From positions 1,266 through 65,265 of the forward strand of contig CAUJJI010000052.1 in the NCBI GenBank assembly GCA_963205265.1: a stretch of 64,000 bases of DNA, read 5' to 3'. Below, in pieces: positions 2,024 through 26,667 of this stretch. Position numbers and translations under genes: made by a program. A model generated the notes under the pieces. The model saw only the letters and a list, made by a program, of their open reading frames with translations. It searched no databases and had not been told where the DNA came from. How positions within the stretch are numbered: position 1 is the first letter of the stretch; each line of letters opens with the position of its first letter. The stretch is from Pseudomonadota bacterium. Its GTDB lineage: Bacteria > Pseudomonadota > Alphaproteobacteria > Sphingomonadales > Sphingomonadaceae.

Positions 2024-2239
2024 TTGCCACTAGATCGCCACTGAGATTCTCATCTGAATCGAGAAATCTGGCGTAACTAGTTGATACATAAGACCTGGCG
2101 GAGAGAGGGGGATTCGAACCCCCGAAGGGCTGTTAACCCTTCAAAGCCGATTTACCAACGCTTAGACCCACTTACGTACCGCCTTCTGGCTTATCACCGC
2201 TTACCTGTTTTGACCTTTTTGCCACTGGATTTGCCACTA
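2024..2239. repeat. four same-orientation TYGCCACTR repeats flanking the att core (candidate integrase arm-type sites)
   Basis: TTGCCACTA 2024-2032, TCGCCACTG 2035-2043, TTGCCACTG 2219-2227, TTGCCACTA 2231-2239. The 13-mer GATTTGCCACTAG occurs at both 2021-2033 and 2228-2240. Confidence 0.5.
2096..2142 (-). tRNA. 3' fragment of a class II tRNA (Ser-like): variable arm, T arm, acceptor 3' strand and CCA; probable att core
   Basis: The reverse complement reads GAAGGGTTAACAGCCCTTC-GGGGGTTCGAATCCCCC-TCTCTCC-G-CCA. No matching 5' acceptor strand (GGAGAGA), D arm or anticodon arm is found upstream, so it is a partial copy. It lies 30 nt from the int stop. Confidence 0.6.
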
Positions 2240-3371: not shown

Positions 3372-3565
3372 CTGTAGTACCCCTCCATGCTCATCTGGAT
3401 TTGACCGAGCGGGTCGCGCACGAACTCGAACCCCTCCAGCCAGACACCGCGGTGGATCCGCTGGTGGACCGCATTCGGCTTGATGCCGGTCAGATTGTGA
3501 AACACTGACAGCCGGACGTATCGGGCGGTCATGCGCTGATCGGTTGCGGGCTCGCTCACCGCCAT
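3314..3565 (-). CDS. xis: excisionase-like DNA-binding protein (83 aa)
   Basis: YVRLSVFHNLTGIKPNAVHQRIHRGVWLEGFEFVRDPLGQIQMSMEGYYRWVEG resembles excisionase-like (DUF1233-type) proteins. It overlaps the int start by 58 nt, as in lambda xis/int. Confidence 0.7.
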   Translation of the reverse strand: MAVSEPATDQRMTARYVRLSVFHNLTGIKPNAVHQRIHRGVWLEGFEFVRDPLGQIQMSMEGYYRWVEGRPRVALNPTGTGSR

Positions 3566-3840
3566 TCCTCCGGGACGATCGGAAACTCATCCAGCGGCCT
3601 GTTCAGCGTCACGGTGACCGGCCCGTGCCGCATGTCGCCGGTCATCTGGCCGTCCAGTTGCCGGCGCTCGCTGTCGTTCAGGTTGCGCCACTTCGCGAGC
3701 ACGACGCCGTTGGTGGCCAGGCCGCGCGGCTGATGCTGCTGACACGGTCCTGCGCTGATGCCGCGCTCCCGGCACCATGCCTCGGCCGCCCGCTTGGCCG
3801 CGAACTCGGGCGTGTCGTCGAATGTGATGGAGTATGGCAT
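3556..3840 (-). CDS. hypothetical phage protein (94 aa)
   Basis: ORF track; start and stop overlap the neighbouring genes. Confidence 0.6.
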   Translation of the reverse strand: MPYSITFDDTPEFAAKRAAEAWCRERGISAGPCQQHQPRGLATNGVVLAKWRNLNDSERRQLDGQMTGDMRHGPVTVTLNRPLDEFPIVPEEWR

Positions 3841-4735: not shown

Positions 4736-5271
4736 CAGCGCCTCCTTGTCCTCATCGCATCGTCAACGTCGGCACGGATCTCGTCCGCGTGGCCCGGCGA
4801 TCCGTTCCAGTGAAACCAGGCGGTCGACAGCGTAGCCAGGCCCAGCAGATACTGCATCCGCATCGCGTCTTCCCGAACTTCTTCAAGCCCGGTCACCAGC
4901 TCGGTGTTGACGGTGACGTACCCCTCGATGTCGCTCTTCAGCGCCTCGACCTCCGTCCTCGCCTCCCACAGCGCCCGCACGGTAGCCTGCACGCTGTCAG
5001 CCGAATGCTCGTATTCCTCCGGCTCCTCCGCGATTCCCCGACGCCAGCGCTCCGCGATCTGGTCGGCGTGACGGCTGGCCGAGCAGGTGTTACTGGGGAA
5101 ATTGCGGACGGAATCGGTGTCGGTCAGCACGGCGAGCCGGGATCGAAGCGCCGCGATCTCGGCGCCCCTCGCATCCCAGGCGGCTTTGAAGTAGCGCGCC
5201 CCGATCTCGTTGTGATCGGGTGGCTGGTCCTTGCATACGGCCATGTAGGCGGCCACGAACTGATCATTCAT
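4735..5271 (-). CDS. hypothetical phage protein (178 aa)
   Basis: ORF track; tightly packed in the leftward operon. Confidence 0.6.
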   Translation of the reverse strand: MNDQFVAAYMAVCKDQPPDHNEIGARYFKAAWDARGAEIAALRSRLAVLTDTDSVRNFPSNTCSASRHADQIAERWRRGIAEEPEEYEHSADSVQATVRALWEARTEVEALKSDIEGYVTVNTELVTGLEEVREDAMRMQYLLGLATLSTAWFHWNGSPGHADEIRADVDDAMRTRRR

Positions 5272-5515
5272 CGCTACTTCCCCTGATGCCTGCGGCGACT
5301 AGCCGATAGCACGCCTGTGCCGATCGGTTGTTGGAACTCGCTTCGCGGCGGGCGCAGATCCGCACGGCGCGTTCTCGCTCCGCCTCCGCGCACGCTCGAC
5401 CATAGGCGAGTAGCTGGTCGCGGGTGAATACGTCCGTCTGCTGATCTCGGTCGACGAATCGGCCGAGGGTTGTGTAGGGCCTCGGCAGCCTCGGCAGTTC
5501 GCTGTCGTCAATCAT
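5264..5515 (-). CDS. hypothetical phage protein (83 aa)
   Basis: Start taken at ATG 5515 (MIDDSELPRL), which forms an ATGA overlap with the upstream stop at 5512-5514. Confidence 0.55.
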   Translation of the reverse strand: MIDDSELPRLPRPYTTLGRFVDRDQQTDVFTRDQLLAYGRACAEAERERAVRICARREASSNNRSAQACYRLVAAGIRGSSDE

Positions 5516-6719: not shown

Positions 6720-7214
6720 TCAATGCCTCTCCGGCTTGAAGAAAACCAACCAATGCGTCATTCCATGTCGCCCCGAAACCTGTCCGAATAGCGGCGCCGC
6801 CGGTGCCAGCGGCAATACCTCGGCCAGCTTCACCTGGGTCTCGTTCCATTTGAAGACGAGCGTCCCGCCGGGCGACAGGACGCGCCAGCACTCGGCGAAG
6901 CCCTGTCGTAGATCGGTGCGCCAGTCGCTGCCCAGCTTTCCGTAACGGGCTGCCAGCCACGATCGAGGGCCGGCCCGGACGATGTGTGGCGGATCGAAGG
7001 CCACGAGCCGAAACGAGACGTCAGGGTACGGCAGCGCCCGGAAATCCATCAGCACATCAGGCTCGATGCGCAGGACGCGCTGGCCGTCGTCGCGATGGCT
7101 GCGATCGGTGACAGTGACAGTCTCGGACCGGATGTCACCGAACACCGCGTGCTCGCTGGCCCTGTCGAACCACATCGCGCGGGTGCCGCAGCAAGGGTCG
7201 AGAATGGCTTTCAC
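6720..7214 (-). CDS. small SAM-dependent DNA methyltransferase (164 aa; motif I ILDPCCG, motif IV DPPH)
   Basis: GTG start at 7214 preceded by GGGGAGGGGG. VKAILDPCCGTRAMWFDR...FRLVAFDPPHIV...CWRVLSPGGTLVFKWNE is typical of short phage MTases. Confidence 0.8.
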   Translation of the reverse strand: MKAILDPCCGTRAMWFDRASEHAVFGDIRSETVTVTDRSHRDDGQRVLRIEPDVLMDFRALPYPDVSFRLVAFDPPHIVRAGPRSWLAARYGKLGSDWRTDLRQGFAECWRVLSPGGTLVFKWNETQVKLAEVLPLAPAAPLFGQVSGRHGMTHWLVFFKPERH

Positions 7215-7375
7215 GACCCCCTCCCCGGCGGCACCACCGTCCACCCGTGCCGCCTCAGCAGCCGCGCCGCCGCCTTGACCGCCGCCTGCTGCTGGTTGCC
7301 GCTGGTCCGGGGCTTCGGCGCCGGCCGGGCGGTGAGCTGCGCGGCCATCGCGGCGAAGGGGGAGCGGACGTCCAT
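7211..7375 (-). CDS. small hypothetical protein (54 aa)
   Basis: MDVRSPFAAMAAQLTARPAPKPRTSGNQQQAAVKAAARLLRRHGWTVVPPGRGS. TGATG overlap upstream and GTGA overlap downstream suggest translational coupling. Confidence 0.45.
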   Translation of the reverse strand: MDVRSPFAAMAAQLTARPAPKPRTSGNQQQAAVKAAARLLRRHGWTVVPPGRGS

Positions 7376-7656
7376 CACCGCCCCTCCGCATCATCAGGAT
7401 CCTGGTAGCCGGGCAGCTGGATTCCCCGCGCTGCCGCGACCTCGTGGATCGCGAACAGGCCGTCCTGGATGCTGCGGATCATGGCCGCGCAGTTGGCCTC
7501 GGTGGCCCCGACGCTCTGGAGATGGAGGAGCGCGTGCTCCGCGCTCCGCTGGACGAGCTGCTGCGCCGTCAACTCGGCCGCATTCATGGCCTGCAGGCTG
7601 CGCTTCCACTGCTCGATCTTCTTCGGCGAGGTGCCGGCATTCTCGATGACGGCCAT
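7375..7656 (-). CDS. hypothetical phage protein (93 aa)
   Basis: Start taken at ATG 7656 (MAVIENAGTSPKKIEQWKRS), which overlaps the upstream stop. Confidence 0.55.
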   Translation of the reverse strand: MAVIENAGTSPKKIEQWKRSLQAMNAAELTAQQLVQRSAEHALLHLQSVGATEANCAAMIRSIQDGLFAIHEVAAARGIQLPGYQDPDDAEGR

Positions 7657-7970
7657 CACCTCTCCGTCCGGTTGATCGCCGAGACGGCCTCGTCCCAGAT
7701 CCAATGGCATTCGTCGTCAAGGGCGCCGTGCGGCAGCGAAAGCGCGGCATTCGCCCCCTCGGCGAGGCTCGTCGCTGTCTCGTACTCGGCCGCATGCAGC
7801 CGCATCCATGCGCGGACCTTTCGGCGAGCGGCTGGCAACTCCAGGGCCGGGATTGGCGGCCGCGGATGACGGTCCATCAATGCAGCCTCGGTCATGATCC
7901 GGCGATCATGGACCTCATCGTTTGCTCGCTTGAGGTGCTGCCTCCAGCGATTCTCTTGCCGGACGCTCAC
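7656..7970 (-). CDS. hypothetical phage protein (104 aa)
   Basis: ORF track; overlapping start and stop. Confidence 0.55.
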   Translation of the reverse strand: MSVRQENRWRQHLKRANDEVHDRRIMTEAALMDRHPRPPIPALELPAARRKVRAWMRLHAAEYETATSLAEGANAALSLPHGALDDECHWIWDEAVSAINRTER

Positions 7971-15560: not shown

Positions 15561-15799
15561 GCAACCAATCTCCCCACCACAGTCCACACGTACCCGCAGA
15601 CATCAAGCAGGCCGATCAGGGCGAAGACGATTAGCGACCAGACCGCGAGTTTGTCGCGCAGGCTGGGCTCCGGGTACAGGTCGCGGATGGCCTCGCCGCG
15701 GTAGATGCGGGGATTGACGGCGGGCGAGGGTAGCCGGTGATCGGCCAGGTCGGCCGTCGCGAGGCCGGCTGCCGCTACGATCTGGTGCCGGACGATCAC
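15557..15799 (-). CDS. small membrane protein (80 aa)
   Basis: C-terminal hydrophobic helix LAVWSLIVFALIGLLDVCGYVW. Confidence 0.5.
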   Translation of the reverse strand: MIVRHQIVAAAGLATADLADHRLPSPAVNPRIYRGEAIRDLYPEPSLRDKLAVWSLIVFALIGLLDVCGYVWTVVGRLVA

Positions 15800-16518
15800 G
15801 ACTCATCCCCCACGAACTCGCCCATTTCGTTGAGGCGGTACCAGCGGTTGGGTTCGATTCCGTCGGTTCCGACGCGAGCCGTTTTCAGGTGGATCAGTTC
15901 GCCGTCGTCGTTGCGGTAGCCGACGACGATCCAGCAACCGAGCGGCGCTCGGGCGCGGCTGTTCTCGCCGGTGGCGATGGCGACGGCGTGTTGGTTGTGG
16001 TCGGGATCGTCTACGGGCTTGATCTCGGCGGTGCTGTAGCGACCGATTGCGAGCGCGGCCGACCGGTACCCCGTGGCGCTGCTCGCCGACTGGTCCCCCG
16101 TGGCGCTGCTCGCCGACCGGTACCCCGTGGCGTGCTCCGCTTTCGCGGGCTCGCACTGCGCCAGCACCCACGCGATGGACCGGCTGATGATCTCGGGGAT
16201 TTTCAGTTCGGCCTTGATCGTCAGCCGCGCGGCGGCGATCTTGGAATCATCGCTGTGGCGCGCAATCTCGCCCGAGGCCTCGACCAGCGCGAACCGGTTC
16301 GGCTTGCCGTCATCGCCGATCGGCGCGTAGTAGCCGAACACGTCGAGCGGGTATTCGCAGGCGTGCAGGCCGCTCTTGCAAACCTCGACCTTGCCGGCGT
16401 GCTCGAACGTGCCGCCCAACTGGTACTGCATGTCTCGGCACTTCCAGTCGGCGCCGAAGCCCTTCACGGCCTCGATGACCGGCTGTTTGTCTGCAGTTTT
16501 CTCTTTCTTCTTGGTCAT
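15796..16518 (-). CDS. hypothetical phage protein with internal 9-aa tandem repeats (240 aa)
   Basis: ATG at 16518 (a GTG at 16530 is also possible). N-terminal KCRDMQYQLGGTFEH...CKSGLHACEYPLDVFGYY, then ATGYRSASS/ATGDQSASS/ATGYRSAAL repeats. Confidence 0.65.
   Translation of the reverse strand: MTKKKEKTADKQPVIEAVKGFGADWKCRDMQYQLGGTFEHAGKVEVCKSGLHACEYPLDVFGYYAPIGDDGKPNRFALVEASGEIARHSDDSKIAAARLTIKAELKIPEIISRSIAWVLAQCEPAKAEHATGYRSASSATGDQSASSATGYRSAALAIGRYSTAEIKPVDDPDHNQHAVAIATGENSRARAPLGCWIVVGYRNDDGELIHLKTARVGTDGIEPNRWYRLNEMGEFVGDES
16061..16140. repeat. 27-nt tandem repeat, ~2.9 copies, in-frame inside the 15796-16518 CDS
   Basis: GACCGGTACCCCGTGGCGCTGCTCGCC / GACTGGTCCCCCGTGGCGCTGCTCGCC / GACCGGTACCCCGTGGCGTGCTCCGC. 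Confidence 0.8.
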
Positions 16519-16526
16519 GGCTGGTC

Positions 16527-16943
16527 TCACACTTGCGCGAGATCGACACTCGCGACCTCGTCGATGTCGCTGCCGGTCAGCAGCTTGATGGCCTCGTCGA
16601 TGCGGGCGAGGACGGGATCCTTGTCGCCTTCCTTGGCGACGAATGCGACGCTGTCGAGCAGGTCGCGGGCGCTGACCAGTGCGCTGTAGACCTTCCCGGC
16701 GTGCGCAGGCCGCTTGAGATCATCGGGCAGGACATCTTTCGGTCCGTAGCCCTGCGCCCGGGCGATCCGGACCGGCGGCGGAGCGTGCAGCACCCGAGCG
16801 AACAGCTCGCCGCCGTGCGCGTAGCTCAGTTCGTTCGCCAGCATGCTCATGGCGCGGTCGTCGTCGAGGACGAACCCATCAGCAACCCAGACCGGGCTGA
16901 TGGCGTACTGGACGGTCCAGATGAAGGGTTTGGTGTTCATCAC
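16527..16943 (-). CDS. hypothetical phage protein (138 aa)
   Basis: ORF track. Confidence 0.6.
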   Translation of the reverse strand: MMNTKPFIWTVQYAISPVWVADGFVLDDDRAMSMLANELSYAHGGELFARVLHAPPPVRIARAQGYGPKDVLPDDLKRPAHAGKVYSALVSARDLLDSVAFVAKEGDKDPVLARIDEAIKLLTGSDIDEVASVDLAQV

Positions 16944-17815
16944 GCGGCGGTCGGTTCGGTGGTGATGCCGACCTTGGCCAGCACGCGCTGCAGCTGGCTC
17001 GGCGAGTGGTCAAACCACTGCGACCGGACGAACAGGCGATCGCCGCGACGCATGACGGCGAACTTCACCGCACGGCCTTTGACGTAGTCGAGATTGATCG
17101 GGCCGAACCGGTCGTCCTTGCGGATAAGCGCCTTCGCCTCGTCGTCCGTGAGCGGCGCCGGCGTGAAGTGCAGGAAGCCAAGCCCCTGCGACGAGGATTC
17201 GTCGTAGACCGCCTTGACCAGCGCCACCAGGTCAACACCAGTGACGTCGATTTCGCTGTCGTTCATGGATGGCCCCCAAGCGGCGAGGGCGTCGGCCGGC
17301 GGCAGCTCGACGATCAGCGTCTCGGCGATGCTGCGGTCGCGACCGATGGTCTTCGGCGCGTAGACGCTGAACGCGTCGCGGATGACGGCGAGCTCGGTAT
17401 CGCTGAAGGCGCTGAAGCGGCCCGCGGAGGGCGCGGCCTTGATGGCGAGGGCGGCGTGCAGAACGCCAAAGCGACGGTAGACGGCAGGCAGTCGCACCCC
17501 ATCGGACCAGTGCTCCGACAGCATCACGTCCTGCCACCGGAGATAGCTGGCCTTGCTCAGGTCCGGGTTGCGGCCACCAGCCGTCCACATGCGGGCTTCG
17601 CCGCCATGATTGGCAGCGTCCCGCACCGCGGCGTCGGTCATCACGAAGGTGTCGCGCTGCCGCTCCGGGCTAGGCTCGATGGCGCGCAGGAAGATCGCCT
17701 CGGCCTGATCGCTACTGGTCGCGGCGACCGCAGTGGTGGTGGCGCTGTACTCGCCGCCGATCAGCTTCTGGAACTGGAGGATCAGGTAGATCCTCGCCTC
17801 GCCCTTCTCGCCCAT
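16940..17815 (-). CDS. hypothetical protein, first gene of the leftward early operon (291 aa)
   Basis: Strong SD (GGGAGGGAGAG immediately before the ATG). It lies 55 nt downstream of the PL-like -10 element. Confidence 0.7.
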   Translation of the reverse strand: MGEKGEARIYLILQFQKLIGGEYSATTTAVAATSSDQAEAIFLRAIEPSPERQRDTFVMTDAAVRDAANHGGEARMWTAGGRNPDLSKASYLRWQDVMLSEHWSDGVRLPAVYRRFGVLHAALAIKAAPSAGRFSAFSDTELAVIRDAFSVYAPKTIGRDRSIAETLIVELPPADALAAWGPSMNDSEIDVTGVDLVALVKAVYDESSSQGLGFLHFTPAPLTDDEAKALIRKDDRFGPINLDYVKGRAVKFAVMRRGDRLFVRSQWFDHSPSQLQRVLAKVGITTEPTAA

Positions 17816-17870
17816 CTCTCCCTCCCAGCCCCACCGCGGGGCGCGGCCCTCGGTGAAAGCCAGTTGGGAT

Positions 17871-17926
17871 ATTACACATCATGTTTATCTTGAAGTCAAC
17901 AAGATGTGTAATTCGAAGGTGTAAAT
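17871..17926 (-). promoter_or_regulatory. PL-like sigma70 promoter with repressor operators
   Basis: The minus strand reads TTGACT (17899-17894) - 17 nt - TGTAAT (17876-17871). A perfect inverted repeat ATTACACATC (17871-17880) / GATGTGTAAT (17903-17912) overlaps -10 and -35. A third half-site GGTGTAAAT lies at 17918-17926. Confidence 0.65.
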
Positions 17927-17949
17927 TGGCCTGGGGATAACCCTAGTTC

Positions 17950-17973
17950 AATGAAGAGCCCGCCCCGGCGGGC
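17950..17973 (-). terminator. probable intrinsic terminator after the cargo cassette
   Basis: Minus strand GCCCGC-CGGG-GCGGGC hairpin followed by TCTTCATT, 8 nt after the stop of the 17982-18926 gene. Confidence 0.5.
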
Positions 17974-17981
17974 GCGGGGCG

Positions 17982-18926
17982 TCAGTCGCCGACCCAGGGG
18001 CGCGTGATCGCTTGCCGCAGGAAGGCGGACGAGCGCGTGTCGCTGTCGATGGTCGTTAGGAGAAGGCGTTCAAGTGCCCAGCAGTCGGCGAGCGCCGAGT
18101 GCGGTTGCGGCCGCTTGATACCGAAATGCTCGCAGAGCGCGTCCAGGGACTGGCGACCTCCCGTCCTCCAGCGAACCGACCGGATGGAGCATGCCCAGTT
18201 CATGCCGGAAATCTGCGGAGCCAGCCGAGCCAGCATCCGCCGATCGAACGCTGCGTTGTGGGCAATGACGACGTCAGCCTGCAGGAGGATTCGCGCGATG
18301 GCCTGCCAATCGAAGCGCTGGCCGCGAAGGTCTTCGATGCTCTTGCCGTGTACCTGCTGCGCCTTCGGATGGATCGGCACCCGCGGCTCTCGGTAGCCTT
18401 CGTAGGACAGATGGTGAGTGACTAGATGGCCGTTTTTCGTCCTAACCTCTATCAGGATGCCGCCGAAGCTGATTGGCTCGTCCTCCTCCGCCAGGCCGGT
18501 TGTCTCGGTATCGACTATCGCAACGAGCGTGTGATCGGGCTGGGCGTAGACCTTCCCGTGGCCGACCTTCAGTTCCGATGCCGTGAGATTGATCAGCAGC
18601 TCGGCTGCGTTGTCGAATCGTATCCCAGGCTTGTCCGCGAGCCACGCATCGAGGTCGTCGACGGCCTGCCGGCATTCGGCAAGGCGGTCCAACAAGGCCT
18701 GGCCTGTTGGACGCGGAGCGTGGATTAGGGCGTTTGCGCTATCGGTGCGTCGTTGCGCTTCGGCCAGCGTCTCCCGCCACTTCAGGAGGGCGGGACTCGG
18801 CGTCTCGGCCGCTGGCGTTGGTTCGACCTTTTCGGGCTCCGCCGCGCGTTGCTTCGACCGCGACCAAGTGCTGGCGACGACGTAGACGATGAAGCCGACG
18901 ACGAGCAGCGACAGCATGAAGTCCAT
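17982..18926 (-). CDS. membrane-anchored DEDDh (DnaQ/RNase T-like) 3'-5' exonuclease (314 aa)
   Basis: N-terminal TM helix MDFMLSLLVVGFIVYVVASTW followed by basic residues. Exo I VAIVDTETTGL, Exo II VIAHNAAFDRRML, Exo III HSALADCWAL. Confidence 0.8.
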   Translation of the reverse strand: MDFMLSLLVVGFIVYVVASTWSRSKQRAAEPEKVEPTPAAETPSPALLKWRETLAEAQRRTDSANALIHAPRPTGQALLDRLAECRQAVDDLDAWLADKPGIRFDNAAELLINLTASELKVGHGKVYAQPDHTLVAIVDTETTGLAEEDEPISFGGILIEVRTKNGHLVTHHLSYEGYREPRVPIHPKAQQVHGKSIEDLRGQRFDWQAIARILLQADVVIAHNAAFDRRMLARLAPQISGMNWACSIRSVRWRTGGRQSLDALCEHFGIKRPQPHSALADCWALERLLLTTIDSDTRSSAFLRQAITRPWVGD

Positions 18927-18976
18927 ACAAAGGCCAAGGCAGTGTCAGGGCGTCGACTCGGCTCCGAACATCCGCC

Positions 18977-20710
18977 TCACCAGTACCCCGTCATCGTGTA
19001 GTGCACCCCATCGCGCTCATCGATCACGTAGCCACCGATGTTCCCCGACCAGACGTAGCGCCCATAGAGACCGCACATCAGCCGCTTGAACGGCTCGGTC
19101 CTCACCAGATGCGGCGGAGCGACATAGCCGGGCGGCCCGATGATCGGCTGAGGCGGCGGAAGGTAAACGTCCCAGCAGACGCGCATCACGTCGGGTCGCT
19201 CGGCCATAGTGGTCAAGACAAGTTTGACCGTGTAGCCGTCACGGGACCAAGTCCCGACCGTAGTGTTGAGCGGCAATCGCCCGCTGGCGATGTTGACCCG
19301 TGAGCCCGCGTACGACTCCCCGTTGGCCTCCACGCCGGCGATGACGCCGTCGGCAATGATCGCTTTGACACGGGTGTCGTCGTAGATCCCGACCCCGAAG
19401 GCGCTCGGAAAGCCGTCGCCCAGGCGGTTGGCGCCCATCTCATAGCGCCCATAGCTACCGAGCAGGATACTGGCCTGGCCGTCAGCGGAGGCCAATGTGT
19501 GGGCGTGGGTGTAGGGGTTGCCGGACTTCGCCGGATCCTCGGAAATGCCCTGGTAGAGGACAGCCCCGATGAGGCCTGCGTCGACGGTGTCGTCAGTGAC
19601 TGCAGGCGGTTGCGGTGCGGGCGGCGTGGGGGTGGGATCCGGAGCAGGGGGCGGCTCTGGCGCCGGGCTCGGGGTGGGTGGCCGTGATGCCGTTGGCGCC
19701 CAATCCTTGCCATCCCACGTCCAGTAGACGGTCTTGGATGATGCGTTGTACCCGGTAAGGACGGTGAGCTTGGCAGCGGAGTCGTACCTCATGTCGCTAC
19801 CACTGTAGACCACGCACGGCGTCGGCGGCGTCCCGGGCCTGCCCTCGATGCATGGAGAATCGGAAAAGGGGAATGCGGTCCAGCGTTCGCCATCCCACTC
19901 CCAGGTGTCGAAAACGCTGACCCCGGATCCACCGGGAGATCCGCCGAATAGCACCAGGCGCTTTCTGTCGGTGTCGAACGACACCTTGTGATACCCGCGC
20001 TGCGGCGGAGGATTCGCGCCAGGCAAGCTGGTCCATCCGGAGCCGTCTAGTCGCCATAGGGCTATAGGGCCGTCTATGGAGGCGGACACGAGAAGCGGAA
20101 GGCCTTCCGGTGTCGATGTAAGGGCTGCCACCGGGAGGGTTGGGGGCACAATCGCCGTTCTTGCATTGGTCCATACCCCGGCCTCCCGTACCCAAGTCGC
20201 CTTGATCCCAATTCTTTCGCGTCCAAACGAAGTCACGCCACCGATCACGACAGTGCGTTGCCGCACCGAATCTGTGACCCAAGTGCTACCTCCCTCGATG
20301 AAGTCTGGCACGTTGGGCGTGCTGCAGAAGACACGAGTCGCGCCGCCGCTGGCAAACGTGACACGGAAGTTCACGTTGTTCGCGTCCTGCACGCGGATGT
20401 TGTCCAGGGTCTGCGGTTCTCGACCCGTAACCGCCACGACACCGCATGACTGTTCGGACCACGTGAAGTTCCCGACGGCTGATGATCTGCCGGTGCCGTC
20501 CTTGAACGCCACGAAGTCGTAGGAGGTACCGGAACTGTTCTGGCAGCGCCAGACGCTCTCGGCGGCTGCGAGCGAGGTGCCGTTGAGCAGCGACTGAACC
20601 GGCGACCCGCAGGCCTGCGGATTCGCCGACACCGCCGAATCCGATCCTCCGCCACCTCCGCACCCGGCCAACAGCACCACCGCAACCGCGATCCCCGTCG
20701 TTCTCATCAT
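18977..20710 (-). CDS. lipoprotein with Kelch-like repeat region and Pro-rich linker (577 aa)
   Basis: Start taken at ATG 20710 with GGGAGGGG SD. Signal plus lipobox MMRTTGIAVAVVLLAGC. Kelch-like RGYHKVSFDTDRKRLVLFGGSPGG...FDTWEWDGERWTAF. Linker PTPSPAPEPPPAPDPTPTPPAPQPP. The upstream 72 codons of the track ORF were rejected. Confidence 0.75.
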   Translation of the reverse strand: MMRTTGIAVAVVLLAGCGGGGGSDSAVSANPQACGSPVQSLLNGTSLAAAESVWRCQNSSGTSYDFVAFKDGTGRSSAVGNFTWSEQSCGVVAVTGREPQTLDNIRVQDANNVNFRVTFASGGATRVFCSTPNVPDFIEGGSTWVTDSVRQRTVVIGGVTSFGRERIGIKATWVREAGVWTNARTAIVPPTLPVAALTSTPEGLPLLVSASIDGPIALWRLDGSGWTSLPGANPPPQRGYHKVSFDTDRKRLVLFGGSPGGSGVSVFDTWEWDGERWTAFPFSDSPCIEGRPGTPPTPCVVYSGSDMRYDSAAKLTVLTGYNASSKTVYWTWDGKDWAPTASRPPTPSPAPEPPPAPDPTPTPPAPQPPAVTDDTVDAGLIGAVLYQGISEDPAKSGNPYTHAHTLASADGQASILLGSYGRYEMGANRLGDGFPSAFGVGIYDDTRVKAIIADGVIAGVEANGESYAGSRVNIASGRLPLNTTVGTWSRDGYTVKLVLTTMAERPDVMRVCWDVYLPPPQPIIGPPGYVAPPHLVRTEPFKRLMCGLYGRYVWSGNIGGYVIDERDGVHYTMTGYW

Positions 20711-20775
20711 CCCCTCCCTGGCTGTGCAGGGATCGTAGCCCGGCGGGCGAGGGCGGGGTATCGGGGTTGGCCCGG

Positions 20776-21162
20776 TCAGCTGGTGGCGGGTGGAGTTGAC
20801 TGCCTCGGCGCTTCGGCAGGCGTAGTGGCCGCGGCTGGCGGTGCCACGGTCGTAGTCTGAGCAAGCCTCTGCCAGCCCTGATAGGCGAGTGCGGCCGTTG
20901 CGACGATGGCCAGCGTTGCAATCCACTTGTAAATCTCGGCATTTGCCGACTTTACGTCTGCGCGGATCGAGGCCACGTCGAGCTTGGAGTCAAGCTTGTC
21001 GACCACGGTCTTGACGTCGCCGACCTTGGTGCGTAGATCCTTGATGTCAGCGTCGACCGCCGACAGACGTTCCTCGACCCTCGTAAAGCGGTCTTCCATG
21101 CGGTCGCCTCGGGCATCGAGCCGGATGATGGCTTTTTCGAGTTCTGTCAGGCGCGTTTCCAT
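20776..21162 (-). CDS. coiled-coil protein with C-terminal TM helix and Pro/Thr/Ala tail (128 aa)
   Basis: Start taken at ATG 21162 with GGAGGAGG SD. METRLTELEKAIIRLDARGDRMEDRF...IYKWIATLAIVATAALAYQGW...TTVAPPAAATTPAEAP. Confidence 0.65.
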   Translation of the reverse strand: METRLTELEKAIIRLDARGDRMEDRFTRVEERLSAVDADIKDLRTKVGDVKTVVDKLDSKLDVASIRADVKSANAEIYKWIATLAIVATAALAYQGWQRLAQTTTVAPPAAATTPAEAPRQSTPPATS

Positions 21163-21262
21163 GCCGCCATCATCACCTCCTCCACCGTGTCGGTCAACTC
21201 GTCGTTCGGGCGTACGCGGTTGCTCAAGGCGCGCCAGTCGTGGATACAACTCCGTCACCGAG

Positions 21263-21616
21263 TTAGTCACGTATCGGCGCCTCCCCGTCGGGTTGCTCTG
21301 CGCTCGCCAAGACGAGCGCGATCTGATGAAGCCGGTCGGCCGCTTTAGCGAACAGCCCATGAGATTCGGCCATGGCATCGGCGGCACTGCGTAACTCTCC
21401 GACCGGATTATCGGCACTCGCGCCGACTCCCTTGATGCTCTCAGCCAGAGCGATCTGCGATGCCAGGATCGACACGCCTACGCCCTGGAGGCTTGTCAAG
21501 ACTTCAGTGATCATCTGAATGATGGCCACCTGAACGGTGCTCGAATACGGCGCTTCTTTCGCCGCCGATCTTGCGATCTTGAGTACACGCTCGAAGTCTG
21601 CATCGCTGATGGCCAT
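21263..21616 (-). CDS. small helical hypothetical protein (117 aa)
   Basis: Start taken at ATG 21616 (MAISDADFERVLKIARSAAKE). It lies 88 nt downstream of the repressor gene on the same strand. Confidence 0.55.
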   Translation of the reverse strand: MAISDADFERVLKIARSAAKEAPYSSTVQVAIIQMITEVLTSLQGVGVSILASQIALAESIKGVGASADNPVGELRSAADAMAESHGLFAKAADRLHQIALVLASAEQPDGEAPIRD

Positions 21617-21704
21617 TACCTCTCCTAGAACCCTGTCCCCGGCGCCCACCCGTCACACAATCCTGCAACTGTCACAGAGGTTGTCGCGGGCCTGGTTGCG
21701 CCCG

Positions 21705-22418
21705 TCACCGCGGATAGATCGCCGCGACTTTGTGGATTGATTCGATCTTGTCCAGCGACTCGGTCAGCCCCGGGTACCCGGGGTTCAGTGACCCGAAAGC
21801 GGCCTCGCCGTCGCGGATGTAGAGCAGCTTTTTCAGGGCCTTGCGCTGATCTTTCAGGCGGACGACGACGGTGTCTCCGGGCTGCGCCTCGACGCCGGGC
21901 ACGACGAGGATGCGATCGCCCGAGCTGAACTTCGGGGCCATCGAGTCACCCCGCACCCGCCGCGCGTAGGCGCTCTTGTCCCTGGATGCATTCGGCACCC
22001 GCCCGTCGCCGTGACCGGGCGGGTATCCGTACTCATCGAAGAACCCGTCTGGCCCGCCCAGCACGTCCCCAACGACAGGCGACCACCCGCCATCGGGTGG
22101 CGCTTCCGCGTCCTCCAGTTCGTCGTCGATCTTCGGCCGGCCCGAGCCTCCTGTCCCCTCGGGTTTCCCCTCTGGGTGGGTTTTCACGGGGGAGGAAGCG
22201 GTCTTGGTCAGGTCTTCGGGTAGTGGCTGTCGACCCGTCAACTGGTCAATGGTGATACCGAGCGCGTCCGCGATCTTTCCGTGACGCCACGTTGGTAGGT
22301 CGCGACTTTTCCAGTTTGTGACATCGGACGACGACGCGCCGACCTTCTCGGCGAGCTGGGTCTGATTCCAGCCGCGAGCCCTCATCACGAACAGAGCGAT
22401 GTCGACAGGTCGATCCAT
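21705..22418 (-). CDS. cI: CI-type phage repressor (N-terminal XRE HTH plus C-terminal S24/LexA-like peptidase)
   Basis: WNQTQLAEKVGASSSDVTNWKSRD helix-turn-helix. RRVRGDSMAPKFSSGDRILV with downstream K (RKALKKL) matches the S24 Ser/Lys dyad region. Divergent from the Cro-like gene. Confidence 0.9.
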   Translation of the reverse strand: MDRPVDIALFVMRARGWNQTQLAEKVGASSSDVTNWKSRDLPTWRHGKIADALGITIDQLTGRQPLPEDLTKTASSPVKTHPEGKPEGTGGSGRPKIDDELEDAEAPPDGGWSPVVGDVLGGPDGFFDEYGYPPGHGDGRVPNASRDKSAYARRVRGDSMAPKFSSGDRILVVPGVEAQPGDTVVVRLKDQRKALKKLLYIRDGEAAFGSLNPGYPGLTESLDKIESIHKVAAIYPR

Positions 22419-22451
22419 CTAGCGAGCATAAACAGAATGTGAGTCCCTCTG

Positions 22452-22480
22452 TTACACGCTGTGTTGACTTTGATCTAAAC
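22452..22480 (+). promoter_or_regulatory. left half of a split PR-like promoter (operator half-site plus -35)
   Basis: TTACACGCTGTG-TTGACT(22464-22469)-TTGATCTAAAC parallels the PL architecture. It is interrupted by the IS insertion. Confidence 0.55.
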
Positions 22481-22554
22481 CCCCTCTGTCAAGATAGTTG
22501 GCATGTCGACCGATGCCAGAATTCTTGAATCGAGGGGCAGTTAGGAAAGTCAGG

Positions 22555-23046
22555 ATGTCGAGGTATACGAAAGAGAAGAAGGAGCACGCGCTGGGGCTGA
22601 TGAGCCCACCGCAGAACCTGCCGACAGCGGAGGTGTCCAGGCGCACGGGGATCAGCGAGCCGACGCTGTACGGCTGGCGCAACCAGGCCCGGGCAACGGG
22701 GCGAGCGGTGCCGGGAGACGGCAGCAATGCCGAGGATTGGAGTGCGCAGGACAAGTTCGCGGTAGTGGTCGAGACGATGGGGCTGGCCGAAGCAGAACTG
22801 GCCGAGTACTGCCGGCGCAAAGGCCTGTACGTCGAGCAGATCGAGCGCTGGCGCGAGGCTTGCCTGCAGGCTAACGCCGGTGGCACCGAGCGAGTCAGCG
22901 CGACGGCGCTGGCCGAGGAGCGACGGCGCAGCCGAGGGCTGGAGAAGGAACTGCGACGCAAGGAGAAGGCGCTGGCGGAGACGGCGGCGCTGCTGGTGCT
23001 CAGCCGAAAGCTCGAGGCGTTGTGGAACAAAGGCGAGGACGCATGA
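22555..23046 (+). CDS. IS3-family transposase OrfA (HTH)
   Basis: Start taken at ATG 22555 (MSRYTKEKKEHALGLM...EVSRRTGISEPTLYGWRNQ), followed by a leucine-zipper-like C-terminus. Confidence 0.85.
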   Translation: MSRYTKEKKEHALGLMSPPQNLPTAEVSRRTGISEPTLYGWRNQARATGRAVPGDGSNAEDWSAQDKFAVVVETMGLAEAELAEYCRRKGLYVEQIERWREACLQANAGGTERVSATALAEERRRSRGLEKELRRKEKALAETAALLVLSRKLEALWNKGEDA

Positions 23047-24086
23047 CAGCGTTGCCGCAACGCCAGGAACTCGTCGCGCTGGTGCGGGCGGCGCAGGCCA
23101 GTGGCGCCCGGCTGAAGCCGGCCTGTGAGGAACTGGGTATCTCGCTGCGCACCTGGCAGCGCTGGAGCGACGGCGAGCAAGTGCCCGCCGATGGCCGGCC
23201 GCAGGCAAAGCGGCCGGTGCCGGCCAACAAGCTCAGTGCCCAGGAGCAACGCGCGGTGCTGGACACCTGCCTGCAGCCGCGCTTCGCGGACATGCCGCCG
23301 ACGCAGATCGTGCCGATTCTGGCTGATGAAGGCTGCTACCTGGCCAGCGAATCGACCTTCTACCGACTGCTGCACGCTCACGATGCGCAACAGCACCGGG
23401 GTCGGCAACGACAGCGCTGCCGCAAGCCGGCGCCGATGCACGTCGCTCGCCGGCCCAATGAAATTTGGTGTTGGGATGTCACGTACCTGCCCAGCCAAGT
23501 GAGGGGCCTGTTCTTTTATCTGTACGCCGTCATCGACCTGTACAGCCGAAAGATCGTCGCCTGGGAGGTGCACGCCGCCGAGAACGGTGAGCTGGCCGCC
23601 GAACTGATCGAACGGGCCCGCTGGCGCGAGCATCTGCGAGGCAAGCCCGTGATCCTGCACGCCGACAACGGCGCGCCTCAGCGTTCGCTGACCTTGCGCG
23701 CGAAGCTGCGGGAACTGGGCATCGAGCCCAGCTACAGCCGGCCCGGCGTCAGCGACGACAACGCCTTCATCGAGTCCTGGTTCCGTACGCTGAAGTACAT
23801 GCCGGCCTGGCCCAGCGTCGGCTTCACCGATCTTGATCAGGCTCGCGCCTGGGCGCTGAAGTTCATCGACTGGTACAACGGCTCGCATCGCCATCGCGGG
23901 ATCGGCTTCGTCACCCCGAAACAGCGTCACAACGGCCAGAGCAAGGCCATCCTCGCTCGTCGTCGCGACGTCTACGAAGCTGCCAGGCGCGCTCATCCCG
24001 AGCGCTGGAAGCGCGACATCCGGCGATGGTCCGAGCCCGATCATGTCTGTCTCAACAAGCGTGAACAGGAGAGGCGTTCCGCATAG
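23043..24086 (+). CDS. IS3-family transposase OrfB (DDE/rve integrase core)
   Basis: ATGA overlap with the orfA stop, in the -1 frame. DDE context WCWDVTYL, LHADNGAPQ, SDDNAFIESWFRTLK. Confidence 0.9.
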   Translation: MTALPQRQELVALVRAAQASGARLKPACEELGISLRTWQRWSDGEQVPADGRPQAKRPVPANKLSAQEQRAVLDTCLQPRFADMPPTQIVPILADEGCYLASESTFYRLLHAHDAQQHRGRQRQRCRKPAPMHVARRPNEIWCWDVTYLPSQVRGLFFYLYAVIDLYSRKIVAWEVHAAENGELAAELIERARWREHLRGKPVILHADNGAPQRSLTLRAKLRELGIEPSYSRPGVSDDNAFIESWFRTLKYMPAWPSVGFTDLDQARAWALKFIDWYNGSHRHRGIGFVTPKQRHNGQSKAILARRRDVYEAARRAHPERWKRDIRRWSEPDHVCLNKREQERRSA

Positions 24087-24129
24087 ATCCCTTCTTGCTC
24101 GACACGCCATCTATCTTGACAAACACCGC

Positions 24130-24145
24130 AAACATCGTGTGTAAT
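24130..24145 (+). promoter_or_regulatory. right half of the split PR-like promoter (operator half-site plus -10)
   Basis: AAACATCG-TGTGTAAT. The -10 TGTAAT (24140-24145) ends 6 nt before the cro ATG (24152). Confidence 0.5.
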
Positions 24146-24151
24146 GTATGA

Positions 24152-24454
24152 ATGGCCGACGCTGATCAAATACACCGTCTCGAGACGCCACAAGGCATGG
24201 CCGTCGATGCCGCAGGCGGTCCGGCGGCCGTCGCAAGCACGATAACGCGACTCACCGGGCGCGATATCTCGATCCAGCGACTTTGCAACTGGATGACGCG
24301 GGGCGTACCGGTGGAGTTCTGTCGGCCGTTCGTAGAAGCGGTCGATGGGCTGGTCTCGGTTGCCGACCTCCGTCCCCATGACTGGGATCTGATCTGGCCC
24401 GAGCTAGTCGACGTCGACCACCCCGCTCCCAACCCCGAGCGAAGCGAGGCATAG
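24152..24454 (+). CDS. cro: Cro/YdaS-like DNA-binding protein (100 aa)
   Basis: Divergent from cI. AVASTITRLTGRDISIQRLCNWMTRGVPVEFCRPFVEAVDGLVSVADLRPHDW resembles YdaS/Cro-family proteins. Confidence 0.7.
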   Translation: MADADQIHRLETPQGMAVDAAGGPAAVASTITRLTGRDISIQRLCNWMTRGVPVEFCRPFVEAVDGLVSVADLRPHDWDLIWPELVDVDHPAPNPERSEA

Positions 24455-24655
24455 ATGACCCCTGACAAGCGCCCTTGGCTCGTCGGCGAGGCTGGCCCGG
24501 AGGTGGTGCGCGCCGCCCCGGCGCAACGCAGGAAGGGCAGGGCTGCGCTGACCGAAGCCGACGTGAGGCGGATCGCGCGGGAAGAGGCGGAGGCTGTTCA
24601 GGCCGAGCACGCCTCGGTACGGCAGGCTATGCGCGAGTCCCGTCGCCGCTCTCTC
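24455..24655 (+). pseudogene. possible 5' remnant of a gene interrupted by the tnpB-containing block
   Basis: The ATG abuts the cro stop. High GC3 for ~66 codons (MTPDKRPWLVGEAGPEVVRAAPAQRRKGRAALTEADVRRIAREEAEAVQAEHASVRQAMRESRRRSL), then the coding signal collapses. The same reading frame resumes at ~26705. Confidence 0.3.
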
Positions 24656-24920
24656 GAAGGATTGTCACAAGCCTCGAAACCCCATTCAAAGCCCGAAGCG
24701 ACCCCTCCAGCTCAGCTGGAAACCACTCCTGAGCAATCGGCGCCTCTGCATCTTCGCGAGACCGAGTCGAGACAAGCCGAAGGCAGTCCTCCGCTTCCTT
24801 CAAGAACAGGGTCGTTGCTTCGTCTGTTTCGCAGGTTCTGGCGATGAGCAGCGAGATGCACGTCTTCAAGGCCTCGATCTCGCCCGACTGGGTTGCAGAT
24901 TCTTTGACGTTTTCGTCCAT
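24627..24920 (-). CDS. reverse-strand orphan protein (97 aa, helical)
   Basis: Start taken at ATG 24920 (MDENVKESATQSGEIEALKTCISLLIARTCETDEATTLFLKEAEDCL). Lower GC than the surrounding sequence. Confidence 0.5.
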   Translation of the reverse strand: MDENVKESATQSGEIEALKTCISLLIARTCETDEATTLFLKEAEDCLRLVSTRSREDAEAPIAQEWFPAELEGSLRALNGVSRLVTILRESGDGTRA

Positions 24921-25102
24921 GGGTCGCTCCCGTCGTGGAAGTCTGGTTGGTGGAACACCCATTCAACCACGGCGGGCAGCGACCTACCCCACAGCAGAGA
25001 GGGCGGAGTAGGCGATGGCCGGCTCGTCCAAGCCCCTGGGCCCACCTGGCGCCGCAGAAAAGCTGGCCGCGTGGCTTCTTGATCGCCCCCCGTTTCTTTG
25101 GG

Positions 25103-25489
25103 TCATTCGCCTTCATCAGTGGTTGACGGACCGGATTCTGGAGCGGGTCTTTGGCCCTCAGATGGACTCGCCGAGGTACGTCGCACCAGAAAGTCGGTCC
25201 GGTCGCGAAAGCCGGCCAGATGGAGGTGGTTCGTCGTGATCTGCCCGGATACATCGAACAGGGATACGTGGTCGACCGGTGCCCCCGGTATCGCGAGGTC
25301 CCGGTACAGCAGGTCGATCGGCTTGGCCGACAAGCCGCAGATTGCCACCGAGTTCTCGTCGGTCAGGGCGGTCTCGAACTCGGCGAACTCGCGTCGGACG
25401 CAGGCCATAACCCGCTGCGCTCGTGCCGCCTTGTCGATGTTGCGTGCGCCCTTCGAAGCGAAGTGGATCAGCAAGAGATATCGAGTCAC
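25103..25489 (-). CDS. reverse-strand orphan protein (128 aa, GTG start)
   Basis: GAAGGGGG SD 5 nt before the GTG at 25489. High GC3 for ~100 codons (TRYLLLIHFASKGARNIDKAARAQRVMACVRREFAEFETALTDENSVAICGL). Divergent from tnpB. Confidence 0.55.
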   Translation of the reverse strand: MTRYLLLIHFASKGARNIDKAARAQRVMACVRREFAEFETALTDENSVAICGLSAKPIDLLYRDLAIPGAPVDHVSLFDVSGQITTNHLHLAGFRDRTDFLVRRTSASPSEGQRPAPESGPSTTDEGE

Positions 25490-25623
25490 GGTCGCCCCCT
25501 TCGGCGGTCAATCGGTGGTTGGCGCCTCGATTGTCCATCGTTGCGGGGCGACCTCCCCTCCGCAGGTGCCCGCATGAATCCGGACACCGACACCGCCTGC
25601 TGGCAGTCGATGCGAGGCGTCAG

Positions 25624-26667
25624 ATGCAACTGACGTACCGATTCCGGTTGAAAGACAAGCACGACGCCGAGCTGCGTAGGCAGGCCTGCGCGGTCAATTT
25701 CGTCTGGAACTTCTGCGGCGAAACGCAGAGGTCGGCGCTGCGGTGGCGCAAGCAGTGGCCGAGCGGGTATGACCTGAACAGACTCACGGCGGGATCGTCA
25801 AAGGAACTCAATCTGCATGCTCACACGATCCAGCAGGTGTGCCAGACCTTCGCCCGATCTCAGGATACCAAACGCAAGCCGATGCTGCGTTGGCGTGGCA
25901 AGAGGTCGCTCGGCTGGGTGCCGTTCAACAAGGGCCATGTCCGGTTCGACGGCGAAGCGCTCGTCTTCCGTGGCGTGCGGTACTTCGCATGGCTGCATCG
26001 CGATCTCACCAATGGCCAGACGTTCGGCGCCGGCTCGTTTTCGCAGGACGCGCGTGGTCGCTGGTACATCAATCTGCCGGTCGAGGTCGAATTTCTCGAC
26101 AATGCGCATGGCGACGCCATTGGAATCGATCTTGGCCTGAAGGACCTGGCGACGATCAGCACGGGCGAAAAGATCGAAGCGCCGCGCTGGTACCGCCGGC
26201 AGCAGGAACAACTGGCGGTAGCGCAGCGGGCGCACAAGAAGAAGCGCGTTAAGGCGATCCACGCCAGAATCGCGAACCAGCGCAGGGATCACCTGCACAA
26301 GCTTTCAACCCGCCTCGTGCGGTCGCACGGGGCGATCTTCGTCGGCAACGTGAATGCAGCCGGCCTGGTGAGAACGAAGATGGCGAAGTCCGTCCTCGAT
26401 GCCGGGTGGGCGACGTTCCGAAAGAACCTCGAGTACAAGGCCATCAGGCATCAGGTTCTGTTCGATGTTGTCAATGAAGCGTTCTCCACCCAGACGTGCT
26501 CGTGCTGCGGGGCCATCCCTGCCAGCAGTCCGAAAGGTAGGGCCGATCTCGGAATGAGGCGATGGCGGTGCTGCGAGTGCGGAGCGGAACACGACCGCGA
26601 CGTGAATGCAGCCCGGAACATTGCCGCTCGCGGACTGGCGAGCCTCGCAGGAGGAGCCCATGCCTGA
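25624..26667 (+). CDS. tnpB: TnpB (IS1341-type RNA-guided RuvC nuclease, 347 aa), no TnpA partner
   Basis: Start taken at ATG 25624 (MQLTYRFRLK). RuvC motifs AIGIDLGLKD and EHDRDVNAARNIAARG. Zinc finger CSCCG...CCECG. Confidence 0.9.
   Translation: MQLTYRFRLKDKHDAELRRQACAVNFVWNFCGETQRSALRWRKQWPSGYDLNRLTAGSSKELNLHAHTIQQVCQTFARSQDTKRKPMLRWRGKRSLGWVPFNKGHVRFDGEALVFRGVRYFAWLHRDLTNGQTFGAGSFSQDARGRWYINLPVEVEFLDNAHGDAIGIDLGLKDLATISTGEKIEAPRWYRRQQEQLAVAQRAHKKKRVKAIHARIANQRRDHLHKLSTRLVRSHGAIFVGNVNAAGLVRTKMAKSVLDAGWATFRKNLEYKAIRHQVLFDVVNEAFSTQTCSCCGAIPASSPKGRADLGMRRWRCCECGAEHDRDVNAARNIAARGLASLAGGAHA

Follow-up and report, generated by a model that had tools for sequence, protein, structure and literature searches.

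A repressor-linked cargo slot in a lambdoid prophage with candidate exclusion genes, including a putative membrane-anchored DEDDh exonuclease

It is textbook knowledge that lambdoid prophages carry exclusion genes, expressed in the lysogen, between the repressor gene cI and the early-left promoter PL, and RexB of lambda is a polytopic membrane protein. Here, we analyzed a stretch of 64,000 nucleotides from a Sphingomonadaceae bacterium (contig CAUJJI010000052.1; the whole stretch is called the window below), which contains a lambdoid prophage of ~64% G+C, and we describe four genes, A, B, C and D, that lie between its cI-type repressor gene and a PL-like promoter. Lambda rexA/rexB, and also BstA-like repressor-linked genes, are found in the same slot, co-oriented with and downstream of cI and upstream of the left operator and promoter (OL/PL). 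The order of A and B, a cytoplasmic protein followed by a membrane protein, is also like that of RexA and RexB. However, neither A nor B matched RexA or RexB in Pfam or PADLOC, B is unlike the polytopic RexB in having one C-terminal transmembrane helix and a coiled coil, and the slot holds three units here compared with one pair in lambda. With a probability of about 0.55, we propose that the cI-PL interval of this prophage is a cargo slot in which three unrelated accessory units (A-B, C and D) are stacked, and that these units are lysogen-expressed morons for exclusion or defense.

Other described systems resemble single products of the cassette. In human cells, cytosolic DNA is cleared by TREX1, a tail-anchored DNase of the DEDDh type (PMC11904002). 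Like TREX1, D combines a DEDDh 3'-5' exonuclease domain, predicted to be on the cytoplasmic side, with a linker and a single membrane anchor, and four of its relatives with a C-terminal anchor (P0014, P0016, P0017 and an IMG/VR protein in the locus L010) have exactly the TREX1 layout; unlike TREX1, the window D is anchored N-terminally, and the two are kin only at the superfamily level. TONDOs are ISG20-like DEDDh proteins borne on prophages and plasmids, which trim the 3' ends of RNA and protect against single-stranded RNA phages (PMC13344964). D is similar to them as a DEDDh exonuclease on a prophage; TONDOs are carried by mobile elements and in most cases accompanied by an auxiliary domain or a partner open reading frame (ORF). 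However, D is nearest to DNA exonucleases and is set apart from TONDOs by their description, and the word "transmembrane" is absent from the main text of the TONDO paper (PMC13344964). In the P. aeruginosa phage Fc02, the repressor-transcript gene Olg1/Sie1 shows similarity to DEDDh proteins and excludes superinfecting phages (PMC9936078). Olg1, a soluble polypeptide of 7.9 kDa, comes from a B3-like transposable phage and its gene lies upstream of the repressor gene, whereas D is a complete membrane-anchored enzyme of 314 aa whose gene follows cI in a lambdoid prophage; by this description the two are distinct. With the Fc02 gene and the TONDOs as precedents, a defensive role of D would be credible. 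Finally, the exclusion lipoproteins Llp of T5, Cor of phi80 and N15, and Lpp of mEpimmI block a receptor or DNA entry (PMC11893012). These proteins are small and have only the lipobox in common with C, and the mEpimmI genes are in the structural cluster whereas C is in the repressor operon; no similarity between C and known exclusion lipoproteins was detected.

The locus consists of the following features.
21705..22418, minus strand: cI-type repressor with a helix-turn-helix (HTH) domain and an S24 self-cleaving peptidase, first gene of the presumed lysogenic operon
21263..21616, minus strand: gene A, 117 aa, in the partner position directly upstream of B and probably overlapping it
20776..21270, minus strand: gene B with a revised start, ~164 aa
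18977..20710, minus strand: gene C, a 577-aa putative lipoprotein
17982..18926, minus strand: gene D, 314 aa, with an N-terminal transmembrane anchor and a DEDDh exonuclease domain
17958..17973, minus strand: terminator-like hairpin and T-rich tract that closes the cI-A-B-C-D unit
17871..17926, minus strand: PL-like promoter (TTGACT-17 nt-TGTAAT) with two convergent operator copies on its -10 and -35 hexamers
22419..22486, minus strand: PRM-like region upstream of cI (PRM, promoter for repressor maintenance), holding one operator copy
22452-22465 and 24131-24144: operator copies of the cI-cro interval

The four minus-strand ORFs behind cI, which had been reported in a first-pass annotation of the sequence, are all present. 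Each shows the coding pattern GC2 < GC1 < GC3 (G+C content at the three codon positions), and all four were also predicted by an independent gene caller in other contigs of the same phage. The repressor matched Pfam Peptidase_S24 (5e-14), HTH_26 and Phage_CI_repr, and the PHROG family of transcriptional repressors phrog_4 (3e-26). At the other end of the cassette, the GC hairpin and T-rich tract of the first-pass annotation were located at 17958-17973: the hairpin GCCCGCCGGGGCGGGC forms 6 G-C pairs and is followed by the tail TCTTCATT, as in an intrinsic terminator. Only three terminator-like sites including this one were found in 17500-24600, the other two being a weak site within gene C and a site of opposite orientation. 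The operator-flanked PL-like promoter that had been noted directly beyond the hairpin was supported by its hexamers and by two copies of the 14-bp operator motif TTACACNNNNTGTT, which overlaps both hexamers (17872-17885 on the plus strand and 17898-17911 on the minus strand). This motif occurs exactly 4 times in 64 kb, two copies at PL and two flanking the cI-cro interval, against an expectation of 0.02, a statistic that is optimistic because the motif was derived from the same four sites that were counted. No further copy was found in the 64-kb window when one mismatch was allowed, and we regard this absence as still informative. Since the cassette is flanked by the repressor gene and by the repressor-controlled early-left promoter, it is in the rexAB-equivalent position, as had been claimed: it is co-oriented with cI, lies upstream of the operator-controlled PL, and no effective terminator precedes 17973.

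Upstream of cI, a candidate weak PRM (GTAACA-18 nt-TATGCT) stops 6 nt short of the cI ATG, and the operator copy abuts its -35 element. No Shine-Dalgarno sequence was found before cI, so that the cI mRNA, if started from the candidate PRM, may be leaderless like that of lambda. The base composition of the region also differs from that of its surroundings: the GC3 values of cI and the cassette are 0.68-0.78 compared with 0.85-0.88 in the adjoining early-left genes (a step within 15796-22418), and gene A has the lowest overall G+C content (0.596). The lower GC3 of cI and the cassette fits horizontally acquired cargo.

The D protein matched the Pfam family RNase_T (2e-12, 48.4 bits with a cutoff of 24), and residues D139, E141, D228, H276 and D281 are invariant across the D subfamily. 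In the AlphaFold2 (AF2) model, D is composed of a transmembrane helix (residues 2-29), a disordered Pro-rich stretch, a three-helix linker (45-121) and the DEDDh domain (132-310), and the predicted local distance difference test (pLDDT) value is ~90 in the exonuclease domain. Judged from the profile match and the conserved residues, D is a member of the DEDDh (DnaQ-like) 3'-5' exonuclease superfamily with an intact catalytic motif, and its earlier description as an N-terminally membrane-anchored DEDDh exonuclease was borne out by Pfam, by the catalytic residues and by AF2. When the model was compared by Foldseek, the target-normalized TM scores were 0.71 for Pol III epsilon, 0.69 for ExoX, ~0.6 for RNase T and ~0.5 for TREX1/2. 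By sequence profile and fold, D is closest to the DNA exonucleases PolC-exo, Pol III epsilon and ExoX, while ISG20 and TREX1 were not detected by the D sequence profile at an E value of 0.01. Basic residues follow the N-terminal helix, and by the positive-inside rule the predicted location of the exonuclease domain is the cytoplasmic side of the membrane. In PHROG, the domain matched phrog_192, "DNA polymerase exonuclease subunit" (4.5e-34). More specific assignments of D were rejected. The NCBIfam model NF006615 / PRK09182 gave 109.6 bits against a cutoff of 207 with a match limited to residues 132-297, and the PADLOC model PDC-S48 (3e-14) was matched only at profile positions 6-175 of 411, a full-length match to the 411- or 512-position profile being absent. 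The CRISPR-associated DEDDh domain of the Cas2-DEDDh type was matched in PADLOC at 1e-25, but the neighbors of D are phage genes and no cas gene is among them.

The closest relatives of D share 41-51% identity with it and form a small subfamily, most members of which have a single membrane anchor. This anchor is N-terminal in the window D, P0013 and P0011, the last after extension of its ORF to a start that abuts the repressor stop, and the extended P0011 has the same layout as D, with a transmembrane helix, a Pro-rich stretch, a helical linker and the exonuclease domain. In the four relatives of TREX1 layout, the anchor is C-terminal. Since the anchor swaps its end while the enzyme is predicted to stay cytoplasmic, tethering itself seems to be the selected feature. 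When the genome data were scanned with the D alignment, we mostly recovered a chromosomal subfamily of ~300 aa that has no transmembrane helix and carries a different C-terminal extension, and a degenerate DNA pattern specific to the D subfamily found one further copy of the L010 protein only.

The genomic contexts of D relatives were readable in seven cases. D relatives lie just downstream of a repressor gene, or of a gene in the repressor position, in four other prophage lineages. In L002, the D relative directly follows an HTH repressor gene and a promoter flanked by inverted repeats is placed beyond it, which is the same repressor-cargo-PL layout as in the window. In L184, it is behind an S24 cI gene and one gene for a 122-aa putative secreted protein, and in L010 it is behind a 145-aa gene in the repressor position, for which no family match was obtained. 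In L003-L006, it is two genes further along, in the same interval as an SNase-type gene. SNase-type genes were observed in the repressor-downstream slot at L003 6557-7018, with the D relative, and at L193 5002-5514, with a relative of B; the L193 product has a predicted signal peptide and the L003 product a hydrophobic N-terminus, so that envelope nucleases seem to be a recurring type of cargo in this slot. In L010, a DUF4065/Panacea-like antitoxin-type protein, recognized by eye, and a 144-aa partner are encoded on the minus strand at 6934-7958 and converge on the D relative; this pair looks like a toxin-antitoxin pair in the same cargo slot.

Gene A is preceded by a good Shine-Dalgarno sequence, AGGAGAGG. 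Its product, described as helical in the first-pass annotation, showed no match in Pfam, PHROG, PADLOC or NCBIfam, and a search among 5.8 billion proteins returned only itself, so A is an orphan. Gene B had been given a start at ATG 21162 in the first-pass annotation. In the same frame upstream of this ATG, the peptide RHGGGGDDGGM is encoded, and relatives have GGGGGDNGGM at the same place; further upstream, GTG 21270 is preceded by GGAGG at a distance of 9 nt and gives an 8-nt overlap with the stop of gene A, GTGACTAA. Because of the conserved Gly-rich motif, the GGAGG sequence and the overlaps of 4-23 nt between partner and B genes in relatives, gene B most likely begins at GTG 21270 rather than at ATG 21162. 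Thus, the reported gaps of 50-100 nt do not hold between A and B, where a gap of 100 nt is probably replaced by the 8-nt overlap, and A and B would probably be translationally coupled through this overlap. The B protein consists of a short N-terminal region, the Gly-rich motif, a heptad coiled coil, a juxtamembrane motif (IRAxVEKAHTDIYKW in the family consensus and IRADVKSANAEIYKW in gene B), one C-terminal transmembrane helix and a Pro/Thr/Ala tail, and both the translation and the alignment agree with the coiled coil, C-terminal helix and tail described previously.

In contrast to the other library matches of B, which were below threshold, phrog_3556, a family with no function assigned in PHROG, was matched at 7e-7. 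Of its 276 positions, only the C-terminal half (~154-267) is matched by B and its relatives, a length that would be compatible with an N-terminal part the size of a partner fused to a B-like part. Identification of B as XhlA, DUF7310 or DUF1664 was rejected (DUF7310, 30.4 bits against 40; XhlA, 19 against 34.7), and matches to XhlA-haemolysin-type proteins, spanins, LmuB/JetC and similar proteins were regarded as sub-threshold coiled-coil noise; ten relatives behaved likewise for Pfam. An Rz-like PHROG match (E 0.005-0.006) was judged in the same way. A spanin pair, with B as the inner-membrane and C as the outer-membrane spanin, was also rejected: the transmembrane helix of B is C-terminal, which would place the coiled coil in the cytoplasm, C is 577 aa long, and both genes are in the repressor operon.

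We defined the B family by the motif GGGG[DE]xxGGM, the heptad coiled coil, the juxtamembrane motif, one transmembrane helix and the Pro-rich tail, and with respect to context by an overlapping small ORF upstream and a position downstream of a repressor gene. All of these features are present in the window B, including the overlap with A and the cI gene immediately upstream. An exhaustive HMMER search identified 54 relatives of B, five of them below 1e-10. The window B itself scored 1.5e-53 with the B-family hidden Markov model (HMM), a score that is partly circular because the window sequence is a row of the alignment from which the HMM was built. Of 13 readable contexts, 11 (the window and 10 relatives) have a same-strand repressor gene upstream. 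The repressor is of the S24 type in nine of the 10 relatives, and in the remaining one (L193) only a sub-cutoff HTH_31 match was found. A partner of 104-140 aa always precedes B, and its stop codon overlaps or abuts the B start. In six loci (L185 and L189-L193) and in L194, the partner is a CxxC...CxxC protein that matches phrog_4293, while the partners in three other loci are unrelated and have no family match. The best comparison of A with any partner was a weak similarity of its N-terminus to the L185 partner (E 9e-4), and homology of A to the Zn-ribbon partners (phrog_4293) or to the helical partners of L187 and L188 was not established. The prophages with B relatives span 57-67% G+C and include at least one more distant lineage.

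Solitary B-family genes with no repressor gene upstream were observed in L195-L197, L199 (~4905-5357) and L198 (4980-5381). One of them adjoins a tRNA-like sequence and greB-like chromosomal genes, and such solitary genes may be decayed prophage remnants. On the minus strand of L003, beside the D relative, a 114-aa protein with a coiled coil, a transmembrane helix and a Pro-rich tail is preceded by a 97-aa ORF (7083-7427 and 7489-7782). Despite this A-B-like architecture, the 114-aa protein was missed by both the B-family HMM and BLAST.

Gene C encodes a protein with a basic n-region, a hydrophobic h-region and a lipobox of the type L-[AS]-[GA]-C, as in bacterial lipoproteins; its signal peptide MMRTTGIAVAVVLLAGC contains the lipobox LLAGC with Cys17, followed by Gly at +2 and then GGGGGS. 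There is no Asp at +2, and by the E. coli rule sorting of C to the outer membrane is probably favored. Behind an N-terminal part that is not modeled, C contains ~4 Kelch blades (~140-345), a Pro-rich linker (~343-375) and an all-beta C-terminal region. The four W-x-W-D-G-x-x-W repeats aligned to Kelch-annotated proteins by BLASTP with E values from 2e-17 to 9e-20, while the Pfam Kelch profile gave 14.9 bits against a cutoff of 50. When the AF2 model was searched by Foldseek, the best match was the Kelch domain of KEAP1 (E 3e-7, probability 1.0, ~219 columns). Judged from the model, the region of residues ~140-345 is a Kelch beta-propeller, and with ~4 blades it may be incomplete or may be completed by the unmodeled sequence. 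These results agree with the first-pass view of C as an LLAGC lipoprotein with a Kelch-like repeat and a Pro-rich linker, on the basis of the translation and the repeat matches. C is a near-orphan, since, apart from itself, it matched only distant Kelch proteins, over 8-40% of its length.

We suggest the following model for the lysogen. The genes cI, A, B, C and D would be co-transcribed from the PRM-like promoter, and the transcript would be terminated at 17958-17973. In the first unit, A would be a small cytoplasmic protein, and B would be tail-anchored in the inner membrane with a cytoplasmic coiled coil for oligomerization. By analogy with RexA/RexB, the two might act as a sensor and a membrane effector in abortive infection, or they might block DNA entry like SieA of P22 or form a toxin-antitoxin-like pair. 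The second unit, C, would be an outer-membrane lipoprotein whose partial Kelch propeller binds a surface protein or glycan and which masks or alters a surface receptor. The third unit, D, would be tethered at the cytoplasmic face of the inner membrane and would trim or degrade the free 3' ends of incoming linear DNA, and the tether would keep the exonuclease off the chromosome, by the same logic as in tail-anchored TREX1. It is a tentative proposal, with the odds somewhat against it, that the D family and the A-B pair represent undescribed families for anti-phage defense or superinfection exclusion, and that D could be a bacterial counterpart of TREX1 at the step of DNA entry.

The first-pass annotation had regarded the four products as one envelope-spanning module of the lysogen that could act on incoming DNA or alter the cell surface. 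This reading agrees with the shared strand, the short spacers and the lack of an effective terminator until past D, and all but one of the products are proteins of the membrane or envelope. Envelope proteins are also encoded beside B and D relatives elsewhere, such as the small lipoprotein of L194, the SNases of L193 and L003, the 122-aa protein of L184 and the B-like protein of L003. The annotation had itself named co-occurrence elsewhere as the check, and we found the four genes together nowhere beyond this phage. No match was obtained by BLASTP when A, B, C and a PL-proximal 291-aa protein were compared with all ORFs of the loci including those of D relatives, and the B-family HMM found no member in the loci of D relatives. 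C and D are missing from the loci of B relatives, no relatives of A and C were found beyond copies of the same prophage, and the distributions of B and D do not overlap. Because this set of four genes was found together in this phage only, the single-module claim fails, and we consider such a machine improbable. In addition, the swap of the D anchor between the N- and C-terminus fits simple tethering better than a fixed complex interface, and the positive-inside rule would put the exonuclease in the cytoplasm, away from an outer-membrane lipoprotein. The apparent four-gene system thus resolves into three independently mobile units once relatives are compared. The contigs with an exact cI, A, C or D all represent the same phage from one project (ERR106433xx), including the insertion sequence described below, and the variability of the slot was therefore judged from unrelated prophages. 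There, the slot holds varied cargo, with a small lipoprotein (L194) and an SNase (L193) interleaved beside B relatives, and an SNase and the Panacea-type pair beside D relatives, which is in line with a variable cargo slot. The earlier statement that the combination is not a described defense system was upheld, as PADLOC gave only domain-level DEDDh matches and coiled-coil noise.

Cargo for the benefit of the host by lysogenic conversion, instead of phage exclusion, is an unlikely explanation in our view, but the least unlikely of the alternatives. C might change the surface (adhesion, or resistance to serum or predators), D might degrade incoming conjugative or transforming single-stranded DNA, and B might modulate membrane stress. 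Kelch propellers are generic binding modules and C is unlike any known exclusion lipoprotein, enzymes of the epsilon/ExoX type act generally on single-stranded DNA 3' ends, and one D relative is chromosomal, with no phage genes around it. However, in unrelated prophages both the B and the D family are linked to the repressor operon, which is the classic site for genes directed against phages, rexAB and BstA among them, and in relatives the slot also holds nucleases (SNase, DEDDh) and a pair resembling a toxin-antitoxin system. It is about as improbable as the single machine that the genes maintain the prophage, with A-B as an addiction pair and D removing single-stranded DNA near the membrane so that RecA activation and spontaneous induction are damped. 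Small genes that overlap in pairs are a typical feature of toxin-antitoxin systems, and overlaps of 4-23 nt are seen in the A-B relatives; the slot of L010 holds the Panacea-type pair, and cI is a self-cleaving S24 repressor. Against this, no toxin-antitoxin family was matched in Pfam, NCBIfam or PADLOC, it is not obvious how a membrane tether on D would serve SOS control, and the literature searched offered no precedent. The least credible explanation, to which we assign very little weight, is that these are ordinary early or lytic genes, such as a recombination or replication exonuclease, located beside cI by chance. The name of phrog_192 would fit it, lytic phages encode DnaQ-like exonucleases, and this phage has an ERF recombinase. 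However, the cassette lies upstream of PL in the same direction as cI with a terminator in between, lytic-phage exonucleases match D in the catalytic domain only (31-34% identity), a membrane anchor would be unexpected for a replication or recombination exonuclease, and L002 shows the same repressor-to-promoter placement.

Several observations weigh against the reading of the interval as a slot for lysogen-expressed exclusion cargo. An IS3-family insertion sequence is inserted in the operator region, and normal regulation of the operon may be altered or abolished by it. D has no clear ribosome-binding site. The D relative P0014 is encoded in a Burkholderia chromosome, where phage genes are not visible within 8 kb, and another D relative is near an integrase gene rather than a repressor gene, so that linkage of D to a repressor is frequent but not universal, in a small sample of seven contexts. 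The pairing of A with B is based on position and gene overlap alone, A having no detectable homology to the Zn-ribbon partners, and the model of C is of low confidence beyond residues 140-345, with an overall pLDDT of 49 and reasonable values for 140-345. Furthermore, 3'-5' resection of terminally redundant ends by D need not stop circularization.

The B and D families are uncharacterized, repressor-linked families that are absent from PADLOC, from Pfam above threshold, from NCBIfam and from the function-annotated PHROGs, and they were not found among ~50,000 sequenced phage isolates. In 50,697 phage records, blastn with 17000-22500 of the window and with the L092 module gave no match, and neither did tblastn with C, P0131 (a B relative) and two partner proteins. 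IMG/VR contained no relative of the PL-proximal 291-aa protein and only distant ones of cI. Repressor-linked cargo slots are a proven place for new phage-defense functions. If the B and D families protect, they would represent new mechanisms at the step of DNA entry; if not, they would still be useful markers of lysogenic operons in uncultured prophages.

Further features of the window are the following.
22487..24121, plus strand: IS3-family element with 23-nt inverted repeats and orfA/orfB, which separates cI from cro
24152-24454, plus strand: cro-like gene with a YdaS/Cro-type Pfam match (1e-5) below the cutoff
2172-3590: integrase gene, which adjoins a tRNA-Thr gene

The IS3 element (NCBIfam transpos_IS3, 6e-59) is absent from the first-pass annotation, is not part of the cassette and is present in every independent contig with this cI. 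It lies exactly 17 nt past the -35 hexamer TTGACT (22465-22470) of a PR-like promoter, and its right end provides TTGACA 18 nt upstream of the TGTAAT -10 hexamer of cro, which the fourth operator copy (24131-24144) overlaps. Based on these positions, the ends of the element may create hybrid promoters for the transposase as well as for cro. A clean target-site duplication was not observed around it. Just downstream of the cro-like gene, a TnpB / IS605 OrfB gene with a Cas12f1-like TNB domain (25423-26667) marks a second mobile element in the immunity/early-right region. Rfam found nothing over 16500-25500. The other phage genes of the window include those for the ERF recombinase, terminase, portal and a beta-helix tailspike. 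The tRNA-Thr gene beside the integrase gene, at 1629-1703, is the likely attachment site, and a tRNA-Met gene lies within the phage at 34456-34530, upstream of the terminase region.

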